From an uncultured Candidatus Bathyarchaeia archaeon (GTDB taxonomy: Archaea > Thermoproteota > Bathyarchaeia > Bathyarchaeales > Bathyarchaeaceae): DNA of 64,000 bases. The stretch's first letter is position 1; each line of letters opens with the position of its first letter. Under the pieces are notes generated by a model that made no database searches, was not told where the DNA came from, and worked only from the letters and a program-made list of their open reading frames with translations. The stretch covers positions 196,875 to 260,874 of the forward strand of contig CAYQMM010000002.1 of NCBI GenBank assembly GCA_964418675.1. The letters run 5' to 3'. This document shows, piece by piece, positions 5,907 to 36,079 of this stretch. Both the position numbers and the translations under genes were made by a program.

Positions 5907-6548
5907 ATGAAGAAAAGAATTCGCATCGCCCTACCAAACAAGGGGCGCCTAAAGCAACCCGCGATGGAGGTGCTGGGGCAGGCGGGCATAGAAATTCTGG
6001 AGGAGAAACGAACTTACGTTTCCAAGACCTCTGACCCAAGATTCGAGGCGGTCTTCGCCAGAGCCTACGATATACCCGTCTACGTCCACTACGGCGCCGT
6101 TGACCTAGGCATCACTGGTCACGACCTGATTATCGAGAGAGAAGCAGATGTTCTCGAGTTATTGGACCTCGAATTCGGCAAGTGCACTCTCGTCGTCGCT
6201 GTTCCAGAATCCTCAACCATCAATGCGGTCAGTGAGATTCCCGCTCTGACAAGAGTAGCAACCGAATTTCCAGTCCTTGCCAGAAAATATTTCGAAGGAT
6301 TAGGAAAGCAGGTGGAAGTTTTGGAGGTTAGCGGAACCTCAGAACTTGCCCCTAAACTGGGTTTGGCTCAGGTAATCGTGGACATCACATCAAGCGGCGA
6401 AACCCTGCGGAAAAACAGCCTCAGGATAATCGCCACCATCATGGACTCAACTACCCGATTAGCCTGCAATAAGATCGCCTATAGAACCTTCGAGAAGCAA
6501 ATCACCGAGCTATTATCCAGACTGCGAGGAGGGTTAGGAAAAAAATGA
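5907..6548 (+). CDS. hisG: ATP phosphoribosyltransferase, short form
   Basis: 213 aa. IRIALPNKGRL and DITSSGETLRKN motifs. Operon position. Confidence 0.9.
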   Translation: MKKRIRIALPNKGRLKQPAMEVLGQAGIEILEEKRTYVSKTSDPRFEAVFARAYDIPVYVHYGAVDLGITGHDLIIEREADVLELLDLEFGKCTLVVAVPESSTINAVSEIPALTRVATEFPVLARKYFEGLGKQVEVLEVSGTSELAPKLGLAQVIVDITSSGETLRKNSLRIIATIMDSTTRLACNKIAYRTFEKQITELLSRLRGGLGKK

Positions 6549-18925: not shown

Positions 18926-19915
18926 TTAGATTCGAAGCAGTTCTATCTCTTCATCACTTGCTGCACTGGCTGCTAGGGTCTTCACCTTTTCGGCTACATA
19001 TTTAACATCCACTTCGACGCCTTCTGCAGCATCGGAGTATCTGACAGTGATCTCCGCAGCCTTCTTAACCACCTTATCTGGGCATCCGTCTTCTAACACA
19101 GTTATCGGACCCATGTAACCAACAACCTCTAGATAGGGTCGCTTTCTTTGTCTAGCAATGGACAATAAGCGGTTATTCTCCTCTTCGTTTCTTCCCACAA
19201 CAATTTTGCAGCCATCAACCCTGAAGTGCCTGCCAATTCTCAAGAGCGATATATCATCTATTTCTAGGCGCTCGTTATGCTTCAGGAACTCCCTGAGTCT
19301 ATCAGCGAACCGTGGGTCAGTCAGCAGACATCCTCCCGACGGACAAGGATAATCGTTAATTCCCCACTCTTTAGCCAGGCTCATCTGTGGCAATCTTCGC
19401 CTGCCACGAATCGAAAAGAGCTTCTCCCTATCTACCAGCCCACTTTTCTCAGCCTCTGTTTCTGGTAATAGTTTGGCTGATAGAGGTCTCAGAATCTCTC
19501 CCTCCATTCCCGCCTCCTTTTCTATGCGTTCCATAGACCTCTTAGTTTGGGAGAAAGGTCTTTCATCCAGAACCTCCCCGGTTACGACACATTCTGCCCC
19601 AATTTTCTGTGCCAGCTCCTTGGCTTTTCTCAGCATCAATATTCTGCAGTCGATACAGGGGTTCATCCGGCTTCCATAGCCATGGGGAGGATCTGTCACC
19701 AAATCCAAGTATTCTTTGCCCAGAAAGACTGTGTGAGCCTTTATTCCAAACTTTTTCACCGCAGATTCTGCTGCACACTTGTCGCAAAGACAAAAAGGAG
19801 TGGTAAAAATGGCTGCCTCCACATCCACACCCTGCTCAAGCATTGCTTTAACAGCTAATGTGCTGTCTAAGCCACCGGAGAGCAGGACCAGCACTTTTCT
19901 ATTCTTCTCAGTCAA
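18926..19915 (-). CDS. PP-loop ATPase, ThiI/MnmA-like sulfurtransferase without a THUMP domain
   Basis: 329 aa. LLSGGLDST PP-loop, NPCIDCRILM, CPSGGCLLTD. Last gene of the sulfur array. Confidence 0.65.
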   Translation of the reverse strand: MTEKNRKVLVLLSGGLDSTLAVKAMLEQGVDVEAAIFTTPFCLCDKCAAESAVKKFGIKAHTVFLGKEYLDLVTDPPHGYGSRMNPCIDCRILMLRKAKELAQKIGAECVVTGEVLDERPFSQTKRSMERIEKEAGMEGEILRPLSAKLLPETEAEKSGLVDREKLFSIRGRRRLPQMSLAKEWGINDYPCPSGGCLLTDPRFADRLREFLKHNERLEIDDISLLRIGRHFRVDGCKIVVGRNEEENNRLLSIARQRKRPYLEVVGYMGPITVLEDGCPDKVVKKAAEITVRYSDAAEGVEVDVKYVAEKVKTLAASAASDEEIELLRI

Positions 19916-19964
19916 TACCCTGTCACCAACATGAACGAAGAACCGTTTCTTGGAGGTTCCAGAT

Positions 19965-21080
19965 TCACGAGATTAATTTTTCAGAGATGCCAAGCCCATC
20001 CACAAGTGTTTCGCGGAAAAAGTTTAGGGCTTCCTGCTTTTCTTTGAGGCCTTCTACGATCATGACTCCGCTTTTAAGAATGCTGGCGGAGACTTCTTGA
20101 TCTTTGTCAAAGGTTAAGCCGAGGGAAGCGCTGATTTTTACTTTGAAACCGTTTTTCTTGAGATAGGGTTGTAATTCAGCTAGGTTAATTTGGAGATTCT
20201 TTCTTGGGATGATGACGAAGACTTTTTTTCCGCTTCTTCCACAGATTTCTTCAACGAGCTCTCGTTTAAGAGGCATAGGAGAATCTTGAGGTTTTGAGCC
20301 GCAGACTGGGCATTCGTCAACTTTTGAGAGGCGAATTTCGTTGAATTCCATATGTTCTAGGTCAACGTGGAAGAGCCTGTTGGCTAAAAGAGGCTGCTTT
20401 CCTGTAAGTATCCTAATGGCTTCACTGACTTCCAAGCTTGCTATTATACTCAGCAATGATGGATGAACTCCCACCACTCCGCATTTGGGTAGCTTGTCAT
20501 CTTCGAGGTTGCCGTAGAAGCATTCGAGGCATGCTGTTTTTCCCGGGATTATCGTAGAGACGTTGCCTGTGGTTGTTATTGCGGCTGCAAAAATGTAGGG
20601 TATGCCAAGTTTGACGCATGCTCGGTTAATGGCGTAGCGGGGTGTCATGCTGTCTAAGCAGTCAATCACCACATCCATGCCCTTTACTATTTCTTCAGCG
20701 TTGTCCTCTGTTATGTAGAGGGGAAGAGGCTCTATTTCGATGTAAGGATTCAATCTATGCAACTTCTTGGCGGCAACCTCAACCTTTGGGTATCCCACGT
20801 CATCAACTCCGTAGAGGTGCTGCCTATGCAGATTAGCTAATTCCACAACATCCCTGTCAACGAGACGCAAATGTCCAACTCCAATCGCGGCTAATTGAGT
20901 CACAGCTGGAGAGCCTAATCCACCCAAACCCAGCAGGCAAGCCTTGGAGTTTTTAAGTTTCAATTGGGCGCTGTATCCCAGTTCAGCCAGAACAATCTGT
21001 CTTGAATAATATTCCATTTCCTCGCGGGAAAGGTCTGCCTCATTTTGTTTGGTTTTTTTTGTCTCGCTGGTGGGGGTCAT
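19965..21080 (-). CDS. ThiF/MoeB/UbaA-family E1-like adenylyltransferase with an extra ~110-aa C-terminal domain
   Basis: 371 aa. YSRQIVLAELG, GLGGLGSP nucleotide loop, two CxxC pairs (CLEC, CPVC). Confidence 0.85.
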   Translation of the reverse strand: MTPTSETKKTKQNEADLSREEMEYYSRQIVLAELGYSAQLKLKNSKACLLGLGGLGSPAVTQLAAIGVGHLRLVDRDVVELANLHRQHLYGVDDVGYPKVEVAAKKLHRLNPYIEIEPLPLYITEDNAEEIVKGMDVVIDCLDSMTPRYAINRACVKLGIPYIFAAAITTTGNVSTIIPGKTACLECFYGNLEDDKLPKCGVVGVHPSLLSIIASLEVSEAIRILTGKQPLLANRLFHVDLEHMEFNEIRLSKVDECPVCGSKPQDSPMPLKRELVEEICGRSGKKVFVIIPRKNLQINLAELQPYLKKNGFKVKISASLGLTFDKDQEVSASILKSGVMIVEGLKEKQEALNFFRETLVDGLGISEKLIS

Positions 21081-21087
21081 TTAAGTT

Positions 21088-21366
21088 TTAGCCTCCGACT
21101 ACTGCCGGAAGAATCAACACTTCGTCCCCATCGTTGAGTGGAGTGTTGAGCTTCTTAAGGAAGCGGATATCTTTACCGTTTATATAGATTCTGATATGCC
21201 TTCTCGGATTTCCTGCGCTATCAAGTATCTTTGTCTTGAACTCTTCACCGTGTTCCTCAATCAAAGAGTCAAGAACCTCCTTCAACGAAGAGCCTTCTGC
21301 CCCCACTTCCTTCTTTCCCAAGGCTGTAGCTAAAGTTGCGAAAACCCGTAAAGTTACTTTCGCCAC
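21088..21366 (-). CDS. MoaD/ThiS-family ubiquitin-like sulfur-carrier protein ending in Gly-Gly
   Basis: 92 aa. The C-terminus is ...DEVLILPAVVGG followed directly by the stop. Overlaps the ThrC-like gene by 13 nt and lies 7 nt upstream of the E1 gene. Confidence 0.85.
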   Translation of the reverse strand: MAKVTLRVFATLATALGKKEVGAEGSSLKEVLDSLIEEHGEEFKTKILDSAGNPRRHIRIYINGKDIRFLKKLNTPLNDGDEVLILPAVVGG

Positions 21367-22613
21367 TTCAACTCCTCCAAGTTAAAGGCTTTCGCAAAGG
21401 ACTTTAGGTTGGGTTCAATTTCAACTGGTTTCGGGATATGAGGCAGAACCGCTTCGGTTGCTTTCAATCCATTACCTGTCACGTAGCATACAACCTTTTC
21501 ATCTGGTGAAATGTCTCCGCTTTCAACTAGCTTCTTCAGAACCGCTATGGTTACGCCGCCTGCTGGTTCCGTGAATATTCCTTCGGTCTTCGCTAAAAGT
21601 TTAATTGCGTCCACCACCTCAGCGTCTGTGGCGGATTCTGCTGTTCCCCCCGATTGGCGTATGGTTTCAACGGCGTGAACTCCATCGCCTGGGTCTCCTA
21701 CAGCCAAGCTTTTCGCGATGGTATCTGGGTATTCGATTGGGGTGACATCGGTGGAGTTGGATTTGAAGGCGTTTACTACAGGGGCGCATCCTGAGGGCTG
21801 AGCGCCGGACACCCTGATTTTTGTGTCTTCGATTAGGTTGAGTTTCTTGAATTGGTTGAATCCTCGTTGGATGGCGCAGAGCAGGGCTCCGCTGCCCATC
21901 GGCACTACCACATGGTCTGGGTTTTCCCATCTAAGTTGCTCACATACTTCGAAGGCTAAGGTTTTTGAGCCTTCAACGTAGTAGGGGCGTACGTTGATGT
22001 TGGCAAAAGCCCAGTCATAGATTTCTGCGGCTTGGGCGGCGAGCCTGTTAGCGTCATCGTAGGTTCCTTTTACAGCCACTATTTTGGCTCCGTAGATTGA
22101 AGCTTGAACAATCTTGTTAGGTTCTATGTCAGCAGGGATAAATACGTAACATGGCAGTCCCGCTTTGGCTGCGTGGGCGGCTACGGCGGCGGCTAAGTTA
22201 CCAGTTGATGCGGCTCCGAAGGCTTTGGAGTTAAATTCCACGGCTTTGGATGCTGCTACTGTGGCTGGGCGGTCCTTGAAGGAGTATGTTGGGTTGACGC
22301 TGTCGTCTTTGGCGTATAGCGTTTTCAATCCAAGGGCTTTGGCTAGCCTGTTACATTTATGCAGGATTGTATAGCCTGCGCCTAGGTCCACGATTTTCGT
22401 TTTGTCCTGTACTGGTAGCAGTTCGAAGTATCGCCAAACTGTGTTTGGTCTGTTATGGAATGATTTTCTGTCTAGTTCTATGGAGTTGAAGTTGTATGTT
22501 ACTTCTAAGGGTCCAAAACATTCTTCGCAAACATAGGTTTTGGTGGGCGGATATTCTCTGCCGCATTGCCTACATTTGAGGGATTTTATGTGGTTGAGTT
22601 TCGAGACCTCCAT
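21354..22613 (-). CDS. Threonine synthase-family PLP enzyme with an N-terminal zinc ribbon (possibly a thiocarboxylate-dependent homocysteine synthase)
   Basis: 419 aa. CRQCGREY...CEECFG ribbon and SFKDRPA PLP-lysine motif. Confidence 0.8.
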   Translation of the reverse strand: MEVSKLNHIKSLKCRQCGREYPPTKTYVCEECFGPLEVTYNFNSIELDRKSFHNRPNTVWRYFELLPVQDKTKIVDLGAGYTILHKCNRLAKALGLKTLYAKDDSVNPTYSFKDRPATVAASKAVEFNSKAFGAASTGNLAAAVAAHAAKAGLPCYVFIPADIEPNKIVQASIYGAKIVAVKGTYDDANRLAAQAAEIYDWAFANINVRPYYVEGSKTLAFEVCEQLRWENPDHVVVPMGSGALLCAIQRGFNQFKKLNLIEDTKIRVSGAQPSGCAPVVNAFKSNSTDVTPIEYPDTIAKSLAVGDPGDGVHAVETIRQSGGTAESATDAEVVDAIKLLAKTEGIFTEPAGGVTIAVLKKLVESGDISPDEKVVCYVTGNGLKATEAVLPHIPKPVEIEPNLKSFAKAFNLEELKWRK

Positions 22614-22711: not shown

Positions 22712-23479
22712 TCATTGAAGAACCCTGAACAGCATGTATATGCTGAGCAATATCACTCCAAATCCCACAAGTTGCCCGAATTTTCTTCGTGTACCACAAT
22801 GCACCAATCTTTTGCAGAGCAACACTGCAATGGGGGCAGAAATCAAGCCACCTACTATCAACGCAGCAACCAGACTCCAATCAAAGCCGCTAGGACCCAA
22901 AAGAATGAAGAAAGTTGAGGCTATCGCTACAGTTACAAAAAACCTTGCGAAGTTCACAGAACCAACAACTTCTCGGGGGTCATTATGGTTCAAAATCAGC
23001 GTGGGTGTAACTATTGGACCCCATCCTCCGCCGCCCATGGCATCCAAAAAGGCTCCCATAAACCCTAATGCAAGAAGCGTTCTGGTAGACTTTTTTTTCA
23101 CCTTGATGTGGATACCGTCGAATGTGAATCTGTAGAGGACAAGGCACCCCAGCGCAAGAAGTATGACACCCACTAGGACTCTTAGCGGGGTAATTGGCGT
23201 GAAAATAAGCCCATATGCACCTATAATTCCTCCTATGCAGCCAGATACTACGAGAGGCAGAACAATTTCCCGTTTGACATTGCCTATCTTGAAGTGGGCG
23301 ACACCTGAGATGAGAGAGGTGAAAATTCCAGATGTATGTACGCTTGAGCTGGCAATAGCGGGGATTACGCCGAAGGAGAGGAGGAAAGTTGTTGATGTGA
23401 CTCCATAGCCCATGCCTATTGAGCCGTTGATGAATTGCGCCAAGAACCCAATTATGGCGTAAATAAAGAATAGATACAA
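22712..23479 (-). CDS. TSUP (TauE/SafE) family anion permease
   Basis: 255 aa, about 8 TM segments, Gly-rich repeats (GGGGWGPIVTP). Confidence 0.7.
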   Translation of the reverse strand: MYLFFIYAIIGFLAQFINGSIGMGYGVTSTTFLLSFGVIPAIASSSVHTSGIFTSLISGVAHFKIGNVKREIVLPLVVSGCIGGIIGAYGLIFTPITPLRVLVGVILLALGCLVLYRFTFDGIHIKVKKKSTRTLLALGFMGAFLDAMGGGGWGPIVTPTLILNHNDPREVVGSVNFARFFVTVAIASTFFILLGPSGFDWSLVAALIVGGLISAPIAVLLCKRLVHCGTRRKFGQLVGFGVILLSIYMLFRVLQ

Positions 23480-23497: not shown

Positions 23498-24658
23498 CTA
23501 CACGAGTAGACCAGTGTATTTTCTCAGTATCTTGGCGATTTCTGGGCGCATCATCTCCGGTGGAGGCAGCTCACCGTTTTTGAGCATCTCTCTTAAAGCC
23601 GTCATGCTTATTCTGATGTGATTCTCGATGATGTGCCCGCAAGTCTTGTCTGTAGCTACAAGGCGGCATTGTTTACAGAAGAAGGATTCTCTGAACAAGA
23701 TTGGTTCTATGCCCAAATCCAGTTTTTTGAAGGCTTCATGGGCTGAGTAGGGACCGTAATAGTTTCCTACACCTGCTATGTCTCTGCCTACCACGAAGTG
23801 TGTGCAGCCGTAGTTTTTTCTGATGATTGCTAGGAAGATTGCGGCTTTTGGTCCTGCATACCTCATGGATAACGATAGGGTGGCTAAGACGGCGCGGTCC
23901 TTGGGATAATAGTTCTGTGTAAGGTACTCGTAGGCTTCCATTATTGCATCTGGTGGAAAGTCCCCTTTCTTCAGCTTTCCAATAACAGGGTGGATGAAGA
24001 GTCCATCAACCATTTCTAGGGCGCATCTCTGAAGATATTCGTGGACCATGTGCGGCGGGTTTCTGGTCTGGTACGCCGCGATTGATTTCCATCCTCGTTC
24101 TTCAAAGATTCTTCGGGTTTCGGAGGGCGTTAGTTCGTATTTTGCAGCGGGAAAGTCTACGTGCTGGATGAGGTTGATTTCTCCGCCGACTAACGTCTCT
24201 CCGTTCTTGTATAGTTCGCTAACGTTGGGGTGTTGGGGGTCAGTTGTTCCAAAGGTCTGCTTTGCAAGTTCTTTTTTGTCGTACTTGAATTTCTCCTGTA
24301 CATGGAGTATGGCAATGGGTTTTTCGGTGTAAAAGAGGGCGATGTCCTCGCCTTCCTTTATTGTCTTTAGTGTTTCGTGATTTCTTTTTCCGTTGGGGGC
24401 AAGTATGATTGGTATCGTCCATGGGAGTCCATTTGTCAGTTGCCCTTCATGCACTACGTTTGTGTAGTCTTCTTTTGTCATGAATCCTTCTAGGGGACTG
24501 AATGCTCCTACCGCGATTTTGTCAGCATCCAAGATTGATTCTGTGTTAACATCTAATCTGGGCAGCTCCTCCGCTTCTTTGAGTGCCGCTTCTATATTAT
24601 CACTAGCTATGACTCGGTTGACGAGTTTTCCTCCGTGGGGTTTTGGTAAGCCGCTCAT
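23498..24658 (-). CDS. sat: Sulfate adenylyltransferase (ATP sulfurylase)
   Basis: 386 aa. QTRNPPHMVHEYL (QxRNPxHxxH). VVGRDIAGVG sits where GRDHAG is usual. Confidence 0.88.
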   Translation of the reverse strand: MSGLPKPHGGKLVNRVIASDNIEAALKEAEELPRLDVNTESILDADKIAVGAFSPLEGFMTKEDYTNVVHEGQLTNGLPWTIPIILAPNGKRNHETLKTIKEGEDIALFYTEKPIAILHVQEKFKYDKKELAKQTFGTTDPQHPNVSELYKNGETLVGGEINLIQHVDFPAAKYELTPSETRRIFEERGWKSIAAYQTRNPPHMVHEYLQRCALEMVDGLFIHPVIGKLKKGDFPPDAIMEAYEYLTQNYYPKDRAVLATLSLSMRYAGPKAAIFLAIIRKNYGCTHFVVGRDIAGVGNYYGPYSAHEAFKKLDLGIEPILFRESFFCKQCRLVATDKTCGHIIENHIRISMTALREMLKNGELPPPEMMRPEIAKILRKYTGLLV

Positions 24659-24661
24659 CTT

Positions 24662-25411
24662 TCACGCTTCCTTTTGGTGAGGGTGCAGTCCGCACTCTTT
24701 GGTGAGGTCTATTTCCCACCACCATCTTCCAGCCCTGAGGTCTTCTCCCGGTTTGATTGCTCTGGTGCAAGGTTCGCAGCCTATGCTGGGAAAACACTTG
24801 TCATGTAACTTGTTGTATGGAAGTTTCTCTGCCTTGACGTAGTCCCAAACTTGCTCGTTTGTCCAATCGGCTAGAGGGTTAATCTTGATTATTCCATCGT
24901 TGAAATGGTCAACTTCAACTTTCTGGATGTCTGCTCTTGAAACGTTCTGTAATCTTCTTAGACCCGTAATCCATGCGTCAAGCCCTTTAAGCGCTCTTTT
25001 CAGCGGCTCTATCTTCCGTACTTGGCAGCAGAGCTTACGCAATTCTGGGCTTGTGTAAAACAGGTTCACGCCATGCTCTCTCACCATCTTCTCCGCGGAG
25101 GCGGCATCTGGATAGTACACTTCGATTTTGAGGTTGTATTTTCGTCTAACATCATCGATTAGCTCGTATGTCTCTTGATTGAGGCGTCCCGTATCTAGAG
25201 TGAAGATTATGATGTCTGGGTTAATTTTTTGAAGCATGTCAATGAGCACGACGTCTTCTGCGCCGAAGCTGGATGCGAAGGCGATCTTGGGATAAAACGT
25301 CTCTGCAGCCCACTCTAAAACTTTTTCAGCTTTTTTTCCTTCGAGTTGTGCTGCGATTTTCTTTACATCGTTTTCGTTTGGTGTCATTTTTGTGTCTCCT
25401 TCTTGATCCAT
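24662..25411 (-). CDS. cysH: Assimilatory adenylylsulfate (APS) reductase, CysH family with Fe-S cysteines
   Basis: 249 aa. CC (KLCCQVRK) plus CEPC cysteines, and C-terminal KECGLH. Confidence 0.85.
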   Translation of the reverse strand: MDQEGDTKMTPNENDVKKIAAQLEGKKAEKVLEWAAETFYPKIAFASSFGAEDVVLIDMLQKINPDIIIFTLDTGRLNQETYELIDDVRRKYNLKIEVYYPDAASAEKMVREHGVNLFYTSPELRKLCCQVRKIEPLKRALKGLDAWITGLRRLQNVSRADIQKVEVDHFNDGIIKINPLADWTNEQVWDYVKAEKLPYNKLHDKCFPSIGCEPCTRAIKPGEDLRAGRWWWEIDLTKECGLHPHQKEA

Positions 25412-25415
25412 CTGC

Positions 25416-25430
25416 TATAACACTGTTATG
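25416..25430. promoter_or_regulatory. Palindromic operator candidate P1: TATAACACTGTTATG
   Basis: 15-bp dyad (TATAAC-N3-GTTAT) 5 nt upstream of the cysH ATG. One of four near-identical sites. Confidence 0.55.
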
Positions 25431-25441
25431 ACCACATAGCC

Positions 25442-25456
25442 TATAACACCGTTATA
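25442..25456. promoter_or_regulatory. Palindromic operator candidate P2: TATAACACCGTTATA, overlapping the likely cysH TATA box
   Basis: Perfect 6-bp arms. Centre is 26 bp from the P1 centre. Adjacent to an AAGCTTTTCGCC BRE-like string on the minus strand. Confidence 0.55.
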
Positions 25457-25585
25457 AGCTTTTCGCCGAAACAACAACCATTCTCAAAACGTTCAAACAA
25501 GTGCAAAAACTTCAAAGCCTTCTGAGGGAAAGATGGACGGAAAAAACGTAATGTTTATATCCTTTGTTGCTAGGTGTAAAATAAC

Positions 25586-25600
25586 TATTACAGTGTTATG
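25586..25600. promoter_or_regulatory. Palindromic operator candidate P3: TATTACAGTGTTATG (reverse complement CATAACACTGTAATA)
   Basis: Lies between an AT-rich TATA-like TAAAATAA (25576-25583) and the start of the CysM-like gene at 25618. Confidence 0.5.
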
Positions 25601-25617
25601 AGGGATATAGATGGCTG

Positions 25618-26661
25618 GTGGATATGTTTGTTCAACCCCAAAAATCTTCCTTAATATCAGTCGATTCTCTTCCATCTAGCTCTTACCTCAAAAAGATACA
25701 TCTTCTCAAACAGAAAATCGGAAAAACCCCACTTGTACACATAGATAACGTCAACGGCAGCTCCATCTACGCAAAACTCGAATATTACAACCCTTTAAGC
25801 CACTCCGTTAAAGACAGAGCAGCAATATACATGCTGGAAGGAGCAATAAAGCAGGGTCTAGTAACATCCGAAAACAGCGTCTTCGTTGAAGCCTCTTCAG
25901 GAAATCTTGGAATCGCCTACGGAAAAGCTGGCAGCTTCTTAGGTCTAAAAACATTAATTGTGATACCGAGCGTTGTCGGCAAAAAAACCTTTGAAAGAAT
26001 AATCGAGGCGGGAGCAACGGTTGAAAAAACCCCAGACGGTTACTGCCCAAGAAGAAACGAACGAGACGGCGCCATAGCAAAAGTCAAGGACATGTACCTT
26101 GATGATCCAAAAAAGATATGGCTAGACCAATACAGCAACCAAGACAACCTGAGAGCCCATATGGAAGGAACAGGACCTGAAATCTGGAACCAAACCGACG
26201 GAAAACTAACAAACATCGTTCTGGGAGTCGGCACAGGCGGGTCAATTGTAGGCATAACCCGTTACCTGAAGGTAGAGAATCCTGAATTGGAAAGTATAGC
26301 GGTTCAGCCCCAAGAAAACCATCACATCCAAGGATTAAGGAACTTCCAAGAATCCTTAGAGCCAACTCTAATCAGAAAAAACAGGGACTTAATTGACAAT
26401 TGGAGTGAAGTCAGCGATAAAGAAAGCTTTGAAGCTACAAAGTACCTGTGGAGAAGAGGCTATCTCGTAGGCACATCATCAGGACTAAACTACTTCGCCG
26501 CAAGAAAGATAGCAAAGGAAAACCAAGGCTCAACCATAGTTACACTCTTCCCAGACACATGCCTCAACTCCTTCAAAGTGATGCAAAAACACATTCTAAA
26601 CGGTGACCTCACAAAACACGGAAAGAGAGAGTTACCCCATGAAATCAGAAAACAAGACTAA
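25618..26661 (+). CDS. Cysteine synthase-family (CysK/CysM-like) PLP enzyme
   Basis: 347 aa. HSVKDRAA PLP-lysine, SSGNLGIAYG, GVGTGGSIVG, GTSSGLN. Confidence 0.8.
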   Translation: MDMFVQPQKSSLISVDSLPSSSYLKKIHLLKQKIGKTPLVHIDNVNGSSIYAKLEYYNPLSHSVKDRAAIYMLEGAIKQGLVTSENSVFVEASSGNLGIAYGKAGSFLGLKTLIVIPSVVGKKTFERIIEAGATVEKTPDGYCPRRNERDGAIAKVKDMYLDDPKKIWLDQYSNQDNLRAHMEGTGPEIWNQTDGKLTNIVLGVGTGGSIVGITRYLKVENPELESIAVQPQENHHIQGLRNFQESLEPTLIRKNRDLIDNWSEVSDKESFEATKYLWRRGYLVGTSSGLNYFAARKIAKENQGSTIVTLFPDTCLNSFKVMQKHILNGDLTKHGKRELPHEIRKQD

Positions 26662-26708: not shown

Positions 26709-28256
26709 GTGAAGTCATACCCAAGAGATGAAACAATCTTGGCAAAGATAGAAACAGCAGACATAGAACGGTTCATGGGTCGATTCTCTATTGGACGCGA
26801 CAGCAATCCCATGAATCCAACAGGCTCCCTCCACTTCTTAAGACTAAAAGTCCCCGGAGGCTTCTTAACCACCAAACAGTTTCGGGGAGTAGCTGAGTTA
26901 GCTGAAGAATACGGTAGATCACGGGCGGAGATAACTGACAGACAGGACATACAGCTTCACTGGATAGACGCTGCAGATGCCCTAGAAATCTTTTCAAAAA
27001 TGGATGAACTAGGGTTCACCACAGACATGTGCGGACAGAGCTTTGGCGGCGCAAGATATGGAGACGCAAGAAACATCGTGCTTTGTCCAGCCTCCGGAAT
27101 CGAAAAAGATGAGTTGCTGAATGGCTACCCCCTCATGAACGAGCTAAGCAACTTTCTAATTGGAAACCCTGATTTCCAAGACATGCCCCGAAAATTCAAG
27201 TTTTCAATATCAGGATGCGGGTCTGACTGTACACGAGCAGCAACAAATGATCTTTCCTTTGTAGCTGTCAAAAAGAATGATGAAATAGGATACACCACGT
27301 TGCTGGGAGGCAGCATGGGCGCATCGCTGCCCGGTCCCAGATTAGCCAAGCCATCTGGCATGTTTTTGAAGCCTGAGGACGCATTCAATGTAGCAATCGC
27401 CACTATCGAAATTCACCGGGACAATGGAAACAGAGAGACCAAGGCTAAGGCACGGTTTAAGTGGCTCCTTGAAGAGTGGGGCATCGAAAAGTTCCGGAAT
27501 GCGTTAGAAAGCAAACTTGGACGACCCCTTGAAAGCTACGCTGGTCCCGCTTTCACCAAATATGAGGGGCACGATGGGGTGCAACCACAGAAGCAGAGAG
27601 GCTACTATTACGTGAATCTTCCCCTCATTGGCGGCGCTTTATCTGCTGAACAGATGTTTTCTCTTGCGGACCTTGCCGACGAATATGGAAGCGGTGAACT
27701 GAGGCTAACATGCACACAGAACCTTATCTTACCCAACATTAAGAAGAAGGAACCAGTTCTGAAGCGCTTAGAAGCATTAGGTTTTTTCCTTCAAGGTTCC
27801 AAGTTACGCTGGACCAGCATGGGATGTGCTTCAAATTTTTGCGGGAAGACCAAGAGCCCTCACGCCAAGGAAATCTTTAGAGAGGTTGTGGAGTTCCTTG
27901 AGAGCAGTTTCGCTAAGGAGGTTCTGGCGGAGGCAAAGTTTCGGATACATGCCAGTGGCTGTCTCAACAACTGTTGCGCGAATCTCATAGCTGAAGTAGG
28001 TTTGCGTGGCAGGCTCCTTAGGGATGAAGAGAAACTGAAACAGGGCTATGATATAATGCTACTTGAAAAATGCGAACAAGAACAATGTTTCGGAAGTGTC
28101 ATTGAGGGGTCTGTTCCTGCGGCGGATGTGAAGTACAAGCTCAAGGCTCTTTTATCAAATTACTTGAAACACAGAAAACCGACCGAGGACCTGAGGCAGT
28201 TCTGCAAAAGACATACAACAGAAGAACTGAGGAAGTATCTGGAGGGTGAAGTATGA
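26709..28256 (+). CDS. sir: Assimilatory sulfite (nitrite/sulfite family) reductase, siroheme/4Fe-4S type
   Basis: 515 aa with a GTG start. Internally duplicated NiR/SiR fold with cysteine clusters (GCASNFCG ... SGCLNNCC). Confidence 0.8.
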   Translation: MKSYPRDETILAKIETADIERFMGRFSIGRDSNPMNPTGSLHFLRLKVPGGFLTTKQFRGVAELAEEYGRSRAEITDRQDIQLHWIDAADALEIFSKMDELGFTTDMCGQSFGGARYGDARNIVLCPASGIEKDELLNGYPLMNELSNFLIGNPDFQDMPRKFKFSISGCGSDCTRAATNDLSFVAVKKNDEIGYTTLLGGSMGASLPGPRLAKPSGMFLKPEDAFNVAIATIEIHRDNGNRETKAKARFKWLLEEWGIEKFRNALESKLGRPLESYAGPAFTKYEGHDGVQPQKQRGYYYVNLPLIGGALSAEQMFSLADLADEYGSGELRLTCTQNLILPNIKKKEPVLKRLEALGFFLQGSKLRWTSMGCASNFCGKTKSPHAKEIFREVVEFLESSFAKEVLAEAKFRIHASGCLNNCCANLIAEVGLRGRLLRDEEKLKQGYDIMLLEKCEQEQCFGSVIEGSVPAADVKYKLKALLSNYLKHRKPTEDLRQFCKRHTTEELRKYLEGEV

Positions 28257-28510
28257 GCAAAAAATTTGAATTGGAAAAGATTGGTGAAAAACGTTATTCT
28301 CTGGATGTTCGCGGCTCCGTATGTCCCTATCCCCAAATATTGACGTTACGTGCCCTCAACAGCCTTTCTTCAGATGGCATTCTTGAGGTGATTCTTGACA
28401 ATCCCCCATCCGTCCGGGACATCCCTCCTGTTCTGAAAGAAAAGAAATACATGGTCGAAGTGTCAGACGTAGCCAAGGGAACATGGAAAATAATCGTAAG
28501 CCGCAAGTAA
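28253..28510 (+). CDS. tusA: TusA/SirA-like sulfur-relay protein
   Basis: 85 aa. LDVRGSVCPYPQILT (CPxP active-site motif). ATGA overlap with the sir stop. Confidence 0.8.
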   Translation: MSKKFELEKIGEKRYSLDVRGSVCPYPQILTLRALNSLSSDGILEVILDNPPSVRDIPPVLKEKKYMVEVSDVAKGTWKIIVSRK

Positions 28511-35026: not shown

Positions 35027-35041
35027 TATGACAGTGTTATA
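35027..35041. promoter_or_regulatory. Palindromic operator candidate P4: TATGACAGTGTTATA (reverse complement TATAACACTGTCATA)
   Basis: Same 15-bp dyad as P1-P3, 28 nt upstream of the cysK GTG start. Confidence 0.5.
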
Positions 35042-35068: not shown

Positions 35069-36079
35069 GTGAAGAAAACGATTGTGAATAACATCCTCGA
35101 TTTAATCGGAAACACTCCGATGGTACGAATTAATCATCTAAATCCAAACCCTAAGCTTGAGATGTTCCTGAAACTTGAAAAATTCAATCCAGGCGGCTCA
35201 GTTAAAGACCGCATAACAAAATACATGATTGAACACGCAGAGAAGGATGGAAAGCTGAAGAAAGGGATGACGGTCATTGAACCCACCAGCGGAAACACAG
35301 GCATCGGGCTCGCCTTGGTCTGCCGCGTAAAAGGATACGACCTAGCTCTGGTAATGCCCGACACCATGACACGGGAGAGACGCCAGATACTGCTAGCCTT
35401 AGGCGCCAAAGTCATTCTCAGCAAAGGCTCAAAGGGAATGGACGGAGCCGAAGACCTAGCCCACGAGATTGCCAAACAGAACCCAGATAAATACTTCATA
35501 CCCAACCAATTCGCAAATCCAGCCAACGTCCTCGCTCACTACGAAACCACAGCCGAAGAAATATGGAGAGACACAAAAGGCAAAATCACACATTTCGTTG
35601 CGGGCTTAGGCACAAGCGGCACCCTAATGGGAGTCTCCAAGAGACTGAAAGAACTTAAACCTAATGTTCAAATTATTGCTGTTCAACCCGAAGCCGGCAC
35701 CGCCATCCAAGGGCTGAAGAACATAGAAACCCAGTATGTTCCCGCCATCTGGAAACAGGAATTGGTAGATGAAATCCATACGGCTTCTCCAAAGGACGCT
35801 GAGGAGTCAGCGAGAATCTTGGGTCTTCAAGAAGGTCTCTTTGTTGGACCGAGCTCGGGGGCTATTTTTCACATCGCCAGAAAGAAGGCGAGGGAGATCA
35901 AGGGAGGAGTGATGGTGGCGATAGCTCCTGATGGTGGAGAAAAATATCTCAGCACATCTCTATGTGACCCAGCTCTATGCGTGGAAGCCGTCAGAAAGTT
36001 TGGAATCCAGTGCTCCTATAAAGACGGAAAACCAGTAACAGAGGCTACGACCACAACCCTCAAAGAGTCTTCGCCCTAA
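35069..36079 (+). CDS. cysK: Cysteine synthase (O-acetyl/O-phosphoserine sulfhydrylase) with a Cys-containing C-terminal extension
   Basis: 336 aa. GGSVKDRI, TSGNTGIGLA, GLGTSGTLMG, GPSSGA. Confidence 0.85.
   Translation: MKKTIVNNILDLIGNTPMVRINHLNPNPKLEMFLKLEKFNPGGSVKDRITKYMIEHAEKDGKLKKGMTVIEPTSGNTGIGLALVCRVKGYDLALVMPDTMTRERRQILLALGAKVILSKGSKGMDGAEDLAHEIAKQNPDKYFIPNQFANPANVLAHYETTAEEIWRDTKGKITHFVAGLGTSGTLMGVSKRLKELKPNVQIIAVQPEAGTAIQGLKNIETQYVPAIWKQELVDEIHTASPKDAEESARILGLQEGLFVGPSSGAIFHIARKKAREIKGGVMVAIAPDGGEKYLSTSLCDPALCVEAVRKFGIQCSYKDGKPVTEATTTTLKESSP

Follow-up and report, generated by a model that had tools for sequence, protein, structure and literature searches.

The divergent promoter region between cysH and a cysM-like gene in this uncultured archaeon contains three copies of a 15-bp palindrome, which raises the question of whether these are operators and, if so, which genes they govern and which protein binds them. 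The window analyzed here is the whole 64-kb stretch of DNA. The three palindromes that an earlier note had placed at 25416, 25442, and 25586 were all found again in it: P1 (TATAACACTGTTATG) occupies 25416..25430, P2 (TATAACACCGTTATA), a perfect site, 25442..25456, and P3 (TATTACAGTGTTATG) 25586..25600, with matrix scores of 22.2, 24.0, and 17.1, respectively. The description of the dyad as TATAAC-N3-GTTATA was borne out; the central N3 is variable, so the 6-3-6 layout is correct. P4 (TATGACAGTGTTATA; 35027..35041), which lies before a second cysteine synthase gene, completes the four sites to which the note had alluded. The analyses described below make it likely that TATAAC-N3-GTTATA is the operator of a dimeric helix-turn-helix (HTH) factor that, in Candidatus Bathyarchaeum and related Thermoproteota, runs a regulon for the supply of sulfur, cysteine, and Fe-S, with a 130-aa protein as the candidate binder.

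The genes flanking the sites belong to sulfate assimilation and cysteine synthesis. On the minus strand, cysH (24662..25387) encodes a thioredoxin-dependent APS/PAPS reductase (Pfam PAPS_reduct; above the cut-off for the NCBIfam phosphoadenylyl-sulfate reductase and APS_reductase models). It is followed, 4 nt beyond, by sat (ATP sulfurylase; 23498..24658, minus strand; Pfam ATP-sulfurylase and PUA_2), and the unit is closed by a gene for a TauE/SafE-family sulfite/sulfonate permease (tauE; 22712..23479, minus strand; Pfam TauE). On the plus strand lie the gene for a cysM-like pyridoxal phosphate (PLP) enzyme (25624..26661; Pfam PALP), whose ORF opens with GTG at 25618; sir, encoding an assimilatory sulfite/nitrite reductase hemoprotein (26709..28256; Pfam NIR_SIR and NIR_SIR_ferr); and a gene for a tusA-like sulfur carrier (28253..28510; Pfam TusA). 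Because the cysM-like enzyme did not reach the NCBIfam cysK/cysM cut-offs, the reaction that it catalyzes can be named only tentatively. The target of P4 is a cysteine synthase gene (cysK/M; 35084..36079, plus strand; NCBIfam cysKM, 368 bits, above the cut-off), and 28 nt separate P4 from its ORF, which opens with GTG at 35069. Leftward beyond cysH-sat-tauE there is a 99-nt gap and then genes for a ThrC-like PLP enzyme, ThiS, a ThiF-type E1, and a ThiI-like protein. This sulfur-carrier-protein cluster (18926-22613), in which the ThrC-like enzyme has an N-terminal zinc ribbon, has its own promoter, free of the operator site, both in the present genome and in a related species of the genus (G024).

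The positions of the sites relative to the predicted promoters were then compared with those proposed in the note. P2 overlaps a conserved BRE/TATA-like sequence, CGAAA-N-G(C/T)TTATAAC, in agreement with its proposed place over the cysH TATA/BRE. In the window this putative element reads CGAAAAGCTTATAAC (25451..25465, minus strand), its TATA part being the left arm of P2, and the name BRE/TATA is given by likeness to the archaeal consensus. A TATA centre near 25455 puts the predicted cysH transcription start near 25429, within P1. P1 had been said to abut the cysH start codon; this holds for the first in-frame ATG (25411), an alternative start, but the likelier start is the ATG at 25387, which has AAGGAG 8 nt upstream. 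On the other side, P3 does lie between a TATA-like element and the cysM-like start, the conserved box being GTTTATAT (25553..25560, plus strand). This box is likely the TATA box of the cysM-like-sir-tusA operon; it is conserved in G024 and in two related metagenome contigs (L200 and L201), and it would put the start of the transcript near 25583, so that P3 would span approximately +3 to +17. The A/T run immediately 5' of P3 is not conserved in G024.

The motif proved to be more frequent than expected, both in the window and genome-wide. Six matches with at most two mismatches were present in the window versus 1.2 expected, and 0 of 100 shuffles gave six or more. A pattern scan of the 2.04-Mb, 25-contig assembly, which is blind to location, found 11 intergenic and 3 coding matches with at most one mismatch, where intergenic DNA makes up 11.2% of the genome according to gene calls from a crude, self-made ORF set. 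The 60 composition-matched control palindromes with permuted half-sites had a mean of 2.0 intergenic matches (maximum, 6) and 5.5 coding matches. The motif is approximately 5-fold overrepresented in intergenic DNA genome-wide. The matrix scan of the whole genome that the note had proposed revealed the enrichment in intergenic DNA before sulfur, cysteine, and Fe-S genes: the top 13 matches (at least 15.7 bits, 12 loci) were all intergenic and lower-scoring ones mostly coding, with a weight matrix partly trained on the sites that it then scored. Across 76 sites from the present genome and its relatives, the consensus unit is (T/A)ATAAC-N3-GTTAT(A/T) with a variable centre, and the most informative positions of the matrix are the C and G of AAC/GTT (1.9 bits).

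The 13 best hits mark cysH-sat-tauE, cysM-like-sir-tusA, cysK, two cysteine desulfurases, tusA, dsrE, dtxR-feoB, and a small regulator gene. Elsewhere in the genome, sites stand before a nifS/iscS cysteine desulfurase gene (iscS1; contig C3, 22539), tusA and a second cysteine desulfurase gene (tusA-iscS2; C4, 190771), a gene for a DsrE-like protein (C4, 177458), the dtxR(FeoA-fused)-feoB operon (C1, 193592), a 101-aa membrane ORF (C10, 24877), and the gene for the 130-aa HTH protein (C15, 34301, which is the same sequence as C6, 28, across a contig junction). The end of C15 (34243-34328) and the start of C6 (1-60) overlap in sequence, so that these contigs are adjacent in the chromosome, and the junction crosses the promoter of the candidate regulator gene. 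The 250 nt upstream of the sole tRNA-Cys gene found (C4, 83410-83485) contain no site.

The best-scoring site in the genome, a perfect one at C3, 197756-197770, has no conserved target. It was rejected as an operator of cdc6, of the gene for an 88-aa winged-HTH (wHTH) protein, or of moaCB, as relatives have no such site at their cdc6 locus. It also was rejected as a structured RNA: there was no Rfam match, and the neighboring "structure" is a copy of a dispersed repeat of approximately 60 bp, other copies of which lie at C2, 124856, and C10, 850. The site may be a promoter remnant left orphaned at a point of rearrangement. Only 4 of 23 genus members (the present genome, G024, G013, and G020) have the sulfur-type site before dtxR-feoB, on which account iron uptake was discarded as a conserved arm of the regulon. 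Regulon membership differs between species. In all 23 Bathyarchaeum genomes with the gene, the dtxR(FeoA-fused)-feoB promoter carries another conserved palindrome, AATTACGAG-N2-4-CTCGTAATT, which is sometimes doubled (C1, 193610-193630 in the present genome) and is probably a DtxR box.

Footprinting in relatives, which also had been suggested, revealed that the motif is kept at orthologous promoters. The genus is Candidatus Bathyarchaeum, judging by how near-identical homologous proteins are named. Among its 24 other species, the motif was counted 107 times genus-wide, compared with 30 for a reversed control; the motif is rare in other families of the order. In the alignment of iscS1 promoters (mean identity, 57%), 15 of 16 species keep TTTAAATA followed, after 1 to 3 nt, by the site, and 12 of 13 tusA-iscS2 promoters keep it immediately 5' of a conserved box, GATAAATA. 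Orthologous cysK promoters in G021, G014, G012, G015, and G023 have TATAAC-N3-GTTATA 27 to 40 nt upstream, and dsrE orthologues likewise carry the motif. Of nine full-length sir orthologues, from three other families, eight have an exact ATAAC-N3-GTTAT no more than 40 nt upstream, and the ninth has it where the promoter of a cysM-like-sir operon would be. A cysH orthologue (42% identical) in a genome of another family (G035) is preceded by three tandem sites just before its start. Thus, the motif neither occurs at background frequency nor is lost from orthologous promoters, the two outcomes that the earlier note had set against its proposal. That proposal, an operator for an archaeal repressor at both divergent sulfur operons, is supported by the enrichment and the conservation; the repression would follow from the position of the sites.

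In G035, the three-site intergenic region is shared by a divergent gene (locus L002, 2308-2784) for a 158-aa PadR-like regulator with a Cys-rich (TRASH-like) C-terminal tail. Approximately 100 nt 5' of iscS1, an upstream block, CCACTAGGTATCCGCTGATAGTCAG...GACAGAATTAC, is kept in 15 species (L050, approximately 1350-1440); it had no Rfam match and may be a small RNA or a second control element.

The cysH promoter itself could be followed in three metagenome contigs (L200, L201, and L204; CysH 91, 85, and 75% identical), all of which have the same divergent architecture and keep the cysH-sat-tauE block. All three retain CGAAA-N-G(C/T)TTATAAC-N3-GTTATA, followed after 11 nt by (C/T)ATAAC-N3-GTTA, and the remaining spacer is barely alignable. 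The P2-11 nt-P1 spacing is invariant in these contigs and the P2 sequence nearly so; CGAAA-N-G(C/T)TTATAAC is common to all four orthologous cysH promoters, with diverged flanks. P3 is unchanged in L200 and degenerate in the close relative L201, and L204, the third contig, has no cysM-like gene. L204, which is 90 kb long, also has a perfect site (TATAACGAAGTTATA; 6347-6361) 34 nt before a 65-aa gene downstream of cysH-sat-tauE, the product of which consists of a DtxR-type N-terminal DNA-binding domain only.

Both cysH-sat-tauE and sir-tusA are missing from the genomes of the 24 other species in the genus. The two species nearest to this one have the ThrC-like gene back to back with the cysM-like gene in divergent orientation, and the intergenic region keeps GTTTATAT and P3, which in G024 reads TATGACAGTGTTATG. 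This arrangement indicates that two blocks are additional in the present genome: cysH-sat-tauE, together with P1 and P2, and sir-tusA. Beyond a few metagenome relatives with 84 to 91% identity, the nearest CysH homologues are 65 to 68% identical and bear the names Nitrososphaerales/Nitrosocaldus. The comparison suggests that cysH-sat-tauE and sir-tusA may have been gained by transfer, with recruitment into the regulon after or alongside it.

The remaining question is which protein binds. The gene for the 130-aa HTH protein (C15, 33893-34285) lies on a contig other than that of the window. In 23 members of the genus, and likewise in four further families of the order, its promoter reads TTTATAAGC-AATAAC-N3-GTTATA; the sequence farther upstream is unconserved. 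TAAC-N3-GTTA lies no more than 75 nt upstream in approximately 10 of 26 distant orthologues and at 110 to 125 nt in another 3, where approximately 0.002 per locus would be expected; about half of the distant orthologues have no exact core upstream. No other regulator gene has a conserved site in its own promoter. Since the gene is unlinked to the window, this autoregulatory site is the sole tie between the protein and the operators, and it makes the 130-aa HTH protein the most likely binder as judged from comparative data. The ArsR gene near dsrE and the gene for the 88-aa wHTH protein were set aside, neither having a conserved site of its own. An Rrf2/IscR-type regulator also was dismissed, the genome's best PF02082 matches (24 and 20.7 bits) falling under the 30-bit cut-off.

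The protein is predicted to combine an XRE-like HTH with a helical domain after it, and it shows the conserved pattern C5...C94xxC97...C107xxH110...C120xxC123. Of 201 genomes sampled from the phylum, 120 encode a member of the family, which comprises approximately 1,000 clusters at 50% identity. In the family alignment, the HTH stretch LGxTQAAVSQYL..RG, which includes the recognition stretch TQAAVSQYL..RG, is conserved throughout; C5, C97, and C120 are invariant, C94, C107, and C123 are present in at least 90%, and H110 is the consensus. A search for a family name returned a generic Pfam HTH and nothing specific from NCBIfam, PDB sequence and profile searches, or Foldseek. The query scored 20.4 bits against Pfam HTH_3 (cut-off, 23), and 48 of 53 family members match this model at an E value of 0.01 or less. 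The protein had no NCBIfam match and, by phmmer, no PDB match; the family profile matched lambda-repressor-like chains in the PDB (E value, 2e-4) over the HTH only. The AlphaFold model is confident (pLDDT, 88.6; pTM, 0.82) and all-helical, and its best Foldseek match in the PDB (E value, 0.47) covers approximately 60 residues of the HTH, with no relative of the whole fold.

How the regulon might be switched can be read from where the sites lie. Every site overlaps a core promoter element, be it the BRE/TATA, the interval between TATA and the start, or the predicted start itself. The left arms of P2 and P4 are shared with likely TATA boxes (AAAGCTTATAAC and AAGCTTTATGAC, respectively); at iscS1 and the regulator gene, the site occupies the TATA-to-start interval; and at tusA and dsrE it is at the BRE position, upstream of a conserved A/T box. 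Because the sites overlap core promoter elements, steric repression is the best reading: from its position, the bound regulator would exclude TBP/TFB or RNA polymerase, which is also the simplest account. In this mechanism, a dimeric HTH transcription factor would occupy TATAAC-N3-GTTATA, sitting at P2 on the cysH BRE/TATA, at P1, 11 nt further, over the predicted start, at P3 just past the predicted start of cysM-like-sir-tusA, and at P4 on the TATA region of the second cysK. Sulfate activation, sulfite reduction, and cysteine synthesis would thereby be turned off together, and the 130-aa protein would repress its own gene through the same site. Its cysteines would either hold a metal or Fe-S centre or sense a thiol/persulfide and so report sulfur or Fe-S sufficiency; that they serve as an Fe-S/metal centre or in sulfane-sulfur sensing is conjecture on our part.

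Repression everywhere may be too simple. SurR, the sulfur-response regulator of the Thermococcales, is an activator when bound upstream of the TATA box and a repressor when bound downstream of it (PMC12162507). By this precedent, the regulation may be dual, since the site at tusA-iscS2 and dsrE lies upstream of the A/T box, where SurR activates: the factor would repress on or after TATA (cysH, cysM-like, cysK, iscS1, and its own gene) and activate from just upstream (tusA-iscS2 and dsrE). At tusA-iscS2, the conserved A/T box GATAAATA comes after the site and no conserved TATA before it, and dsrE is arranged in the same way. However, a site abutting TATA also takes up the BRE, an arrangement that more commonly blocks TFB, and for the three sites of the note this account makes the same prediction as repression alone. 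We think dual action unlikely. The operator might also be real and bound by another protein, such as the ArsR-type regulator encoded near dsrE, the PadR-like, TRASH-like regulator beside cysH in G035, or an Lrp or ACT-domain protein of the window, with the 130-aa gene a mere regulon member. DNA binding by the 130-aa protein is, after all, a prediction; in G020, the ArsR gene is divergent from dsrE with a site between them, and the PadR-like gene is divergent from cysH in G035. The G020 site, however, is closer to dsrE (37 nt) than to the ArsR gene (206 nt), and these two genes are apart in other genomes. The Lrp and ACT-domain regulators, which the note had put forward as candidates, and the window's other regulators have no site nearby, and the unlinked 130-aa gene alone retains a promoter site of its own at the level of genus, order, and phylum. 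A different binder is, in our judgment, distinctly improbable.

Two further accounts would do without a regulator. The arms TATAA/TTATA are TATA-like, and P2 and P4 overlap likely TATA boxes, so the palindrome could be a core promoter feature consisting of two opposed TATA-like boxes for bidirectional initiation. Yet a separate conserved TATA precedes the site at iscS1 and at the regulator gene, P1 and P3 lie downstream of TATA boxes, conservation peaks at the C and G of AAC/GTT, which is unlike a TATA box, and the motif is restricted to one functional gene set, all of which make this account very unlikely. Scarcely any credence is due to an RNA hairpin in 5' leaders or to an origin as part of a dispersed repeat. 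The palindrome could fold into a stem of 6 bp closed by a 3-nt loop, and a dispersed 60-bp repeat adjoins one site, but the hairpin would have a stability of only -1.4 to -1.9 kcal/mol, and deviations in its arms are uncompensated (e.g., TATTAC/GTTATG, AATAAC/GTTATA, and TATGAC/GTTATA). Several sites lie between TATA and the start and so are not transcribed, and conservation is confined to the 15 bp and does not extend to the flanks.

The system was compared with known regulators. The SurR operator is GTT-N3-AAC (-N5-GTT) (PMC12162507). Like SurR, the present system is archaeal, sulfur related, and predicted to be autoregulated, with a palindrome of GTT/AAC triplets at 3-bp spacing, operators on core promoters, and cysteine pairs as the likely switch. 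Unlike SurR, which comprises approximately 230 aa with two ArsR-like winged HTH domains and a CxxC in the N-terminal one, the candidate has 130 aa and HTH_3-type matches only, and its CxxC pairs (94-97 and 120-123) are in the C-terminal domain instead of the N-terminal DNA-binding domain. The polarity of the operator, AAC-N3-GTT, is opposite to that of SurR, and SurR targets hydrogenase and S0-reduction genes, whereas the genes here are those of assimilation, cysteine, and Fe-S. The bacterial Rrf2 proteins IscR and CymR share the logic that comparative evidence suggests for this system, that of an autoregulated Cys(/His) repressor acting through palindromes on cysteine desulfurase, cysteine synthesis, and Fe-S supply; in contrast to IscR, CymR, and NsrR, the candidate has no Rrf2 domain (PF02082), and fold, cysteine spacing, and operator sequence differ. 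SufR, the cysteine-ligated Fe-S-sensing repressor of cyanobacteria and actinobacteria, likewise has sites on Fe-S gene promoters and its own gene. Its DNA-binding fold and cysteine pattern probably differ from those of the candidate, and it is usually encoded beside suf genes, whereas the candidate gene is unlinked to its targets in the present genome. TrmBL1, with the Thermococcales glycolytic motif TATCAC-N5-GTGATA, offers an archaeal example of a TATA-like palindrome that defines a metabolic regulon, in which an operator at or downstream of TATA leads to repression. It differs in being a TrmB-family protein with a 5-bp spacer and a sugar regulon. Overall, the system has the defining features of neither the SurR family nor the Rrf2 (IscR/CymR/NsrR) family; its logic is IscR/SufR/CymR-like, and its operator style is SurR-like. 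A full-text literature search, which did not extend to approximately 1.7 million PubMed Central articles or to subscription-only papers, returned no paper on the motif or on such an archaeal regulator, and the searchable literature yielded no characterized regulator that controls genes for sulfate assimilation, cysteine synthesis, or Fe-S assembly in archaea.

On a wider scale, we tentatively put forward, at somewhat less than an even chance, that the 130-aa HTH protein and its AAC-N3-GTT-core operator act across the phylum, and possibly in all archaea, as a master switch for sulfur assimilation, cysteine synthesis, and Fe-S cluster supply, which senses Fe-S or sulfane sulfur through its Cys6(His) set and readily recruits patchy, possibly horizontally acquired genes, such as cysH-sat-tauE. 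If true, this would be an archaeal functional counterpart of IscR, SufR, and CymR with an unrelated fold. The Bathyarchaeia are an abundant, uncultured group of sediment archaea, and the locus provides a handle on archaeal control of sulfur supply: the operator and the regulon are defined, and there is one strong candidate for the regulator, whose family is without a specific model in Pfam or NCBIfam and without a solved structure. Recombinant protein and short DNA would suffice for a direct test of the operator and the candidate. A regulon that absorbs cysH-sat-tauE, missing from the nearest species genomes, also would help in reading sulfur metabolism from metagenomes.

The genome also encodes a paralogue of the candidate (C9, 19978-20391; 34% identical) with the same cysteine pattern. 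Its gene has a perfect palindrome of its own, GTCATAT-TA-ATATGAC, approximately 60 nt upstream, before a TATA box, and it is near a ferritin-like gene, so this may be a second regulon of the same family. A paralogue with a different palindrome fits the notion of a family of autoregulated factors with distinct predicted specificities.
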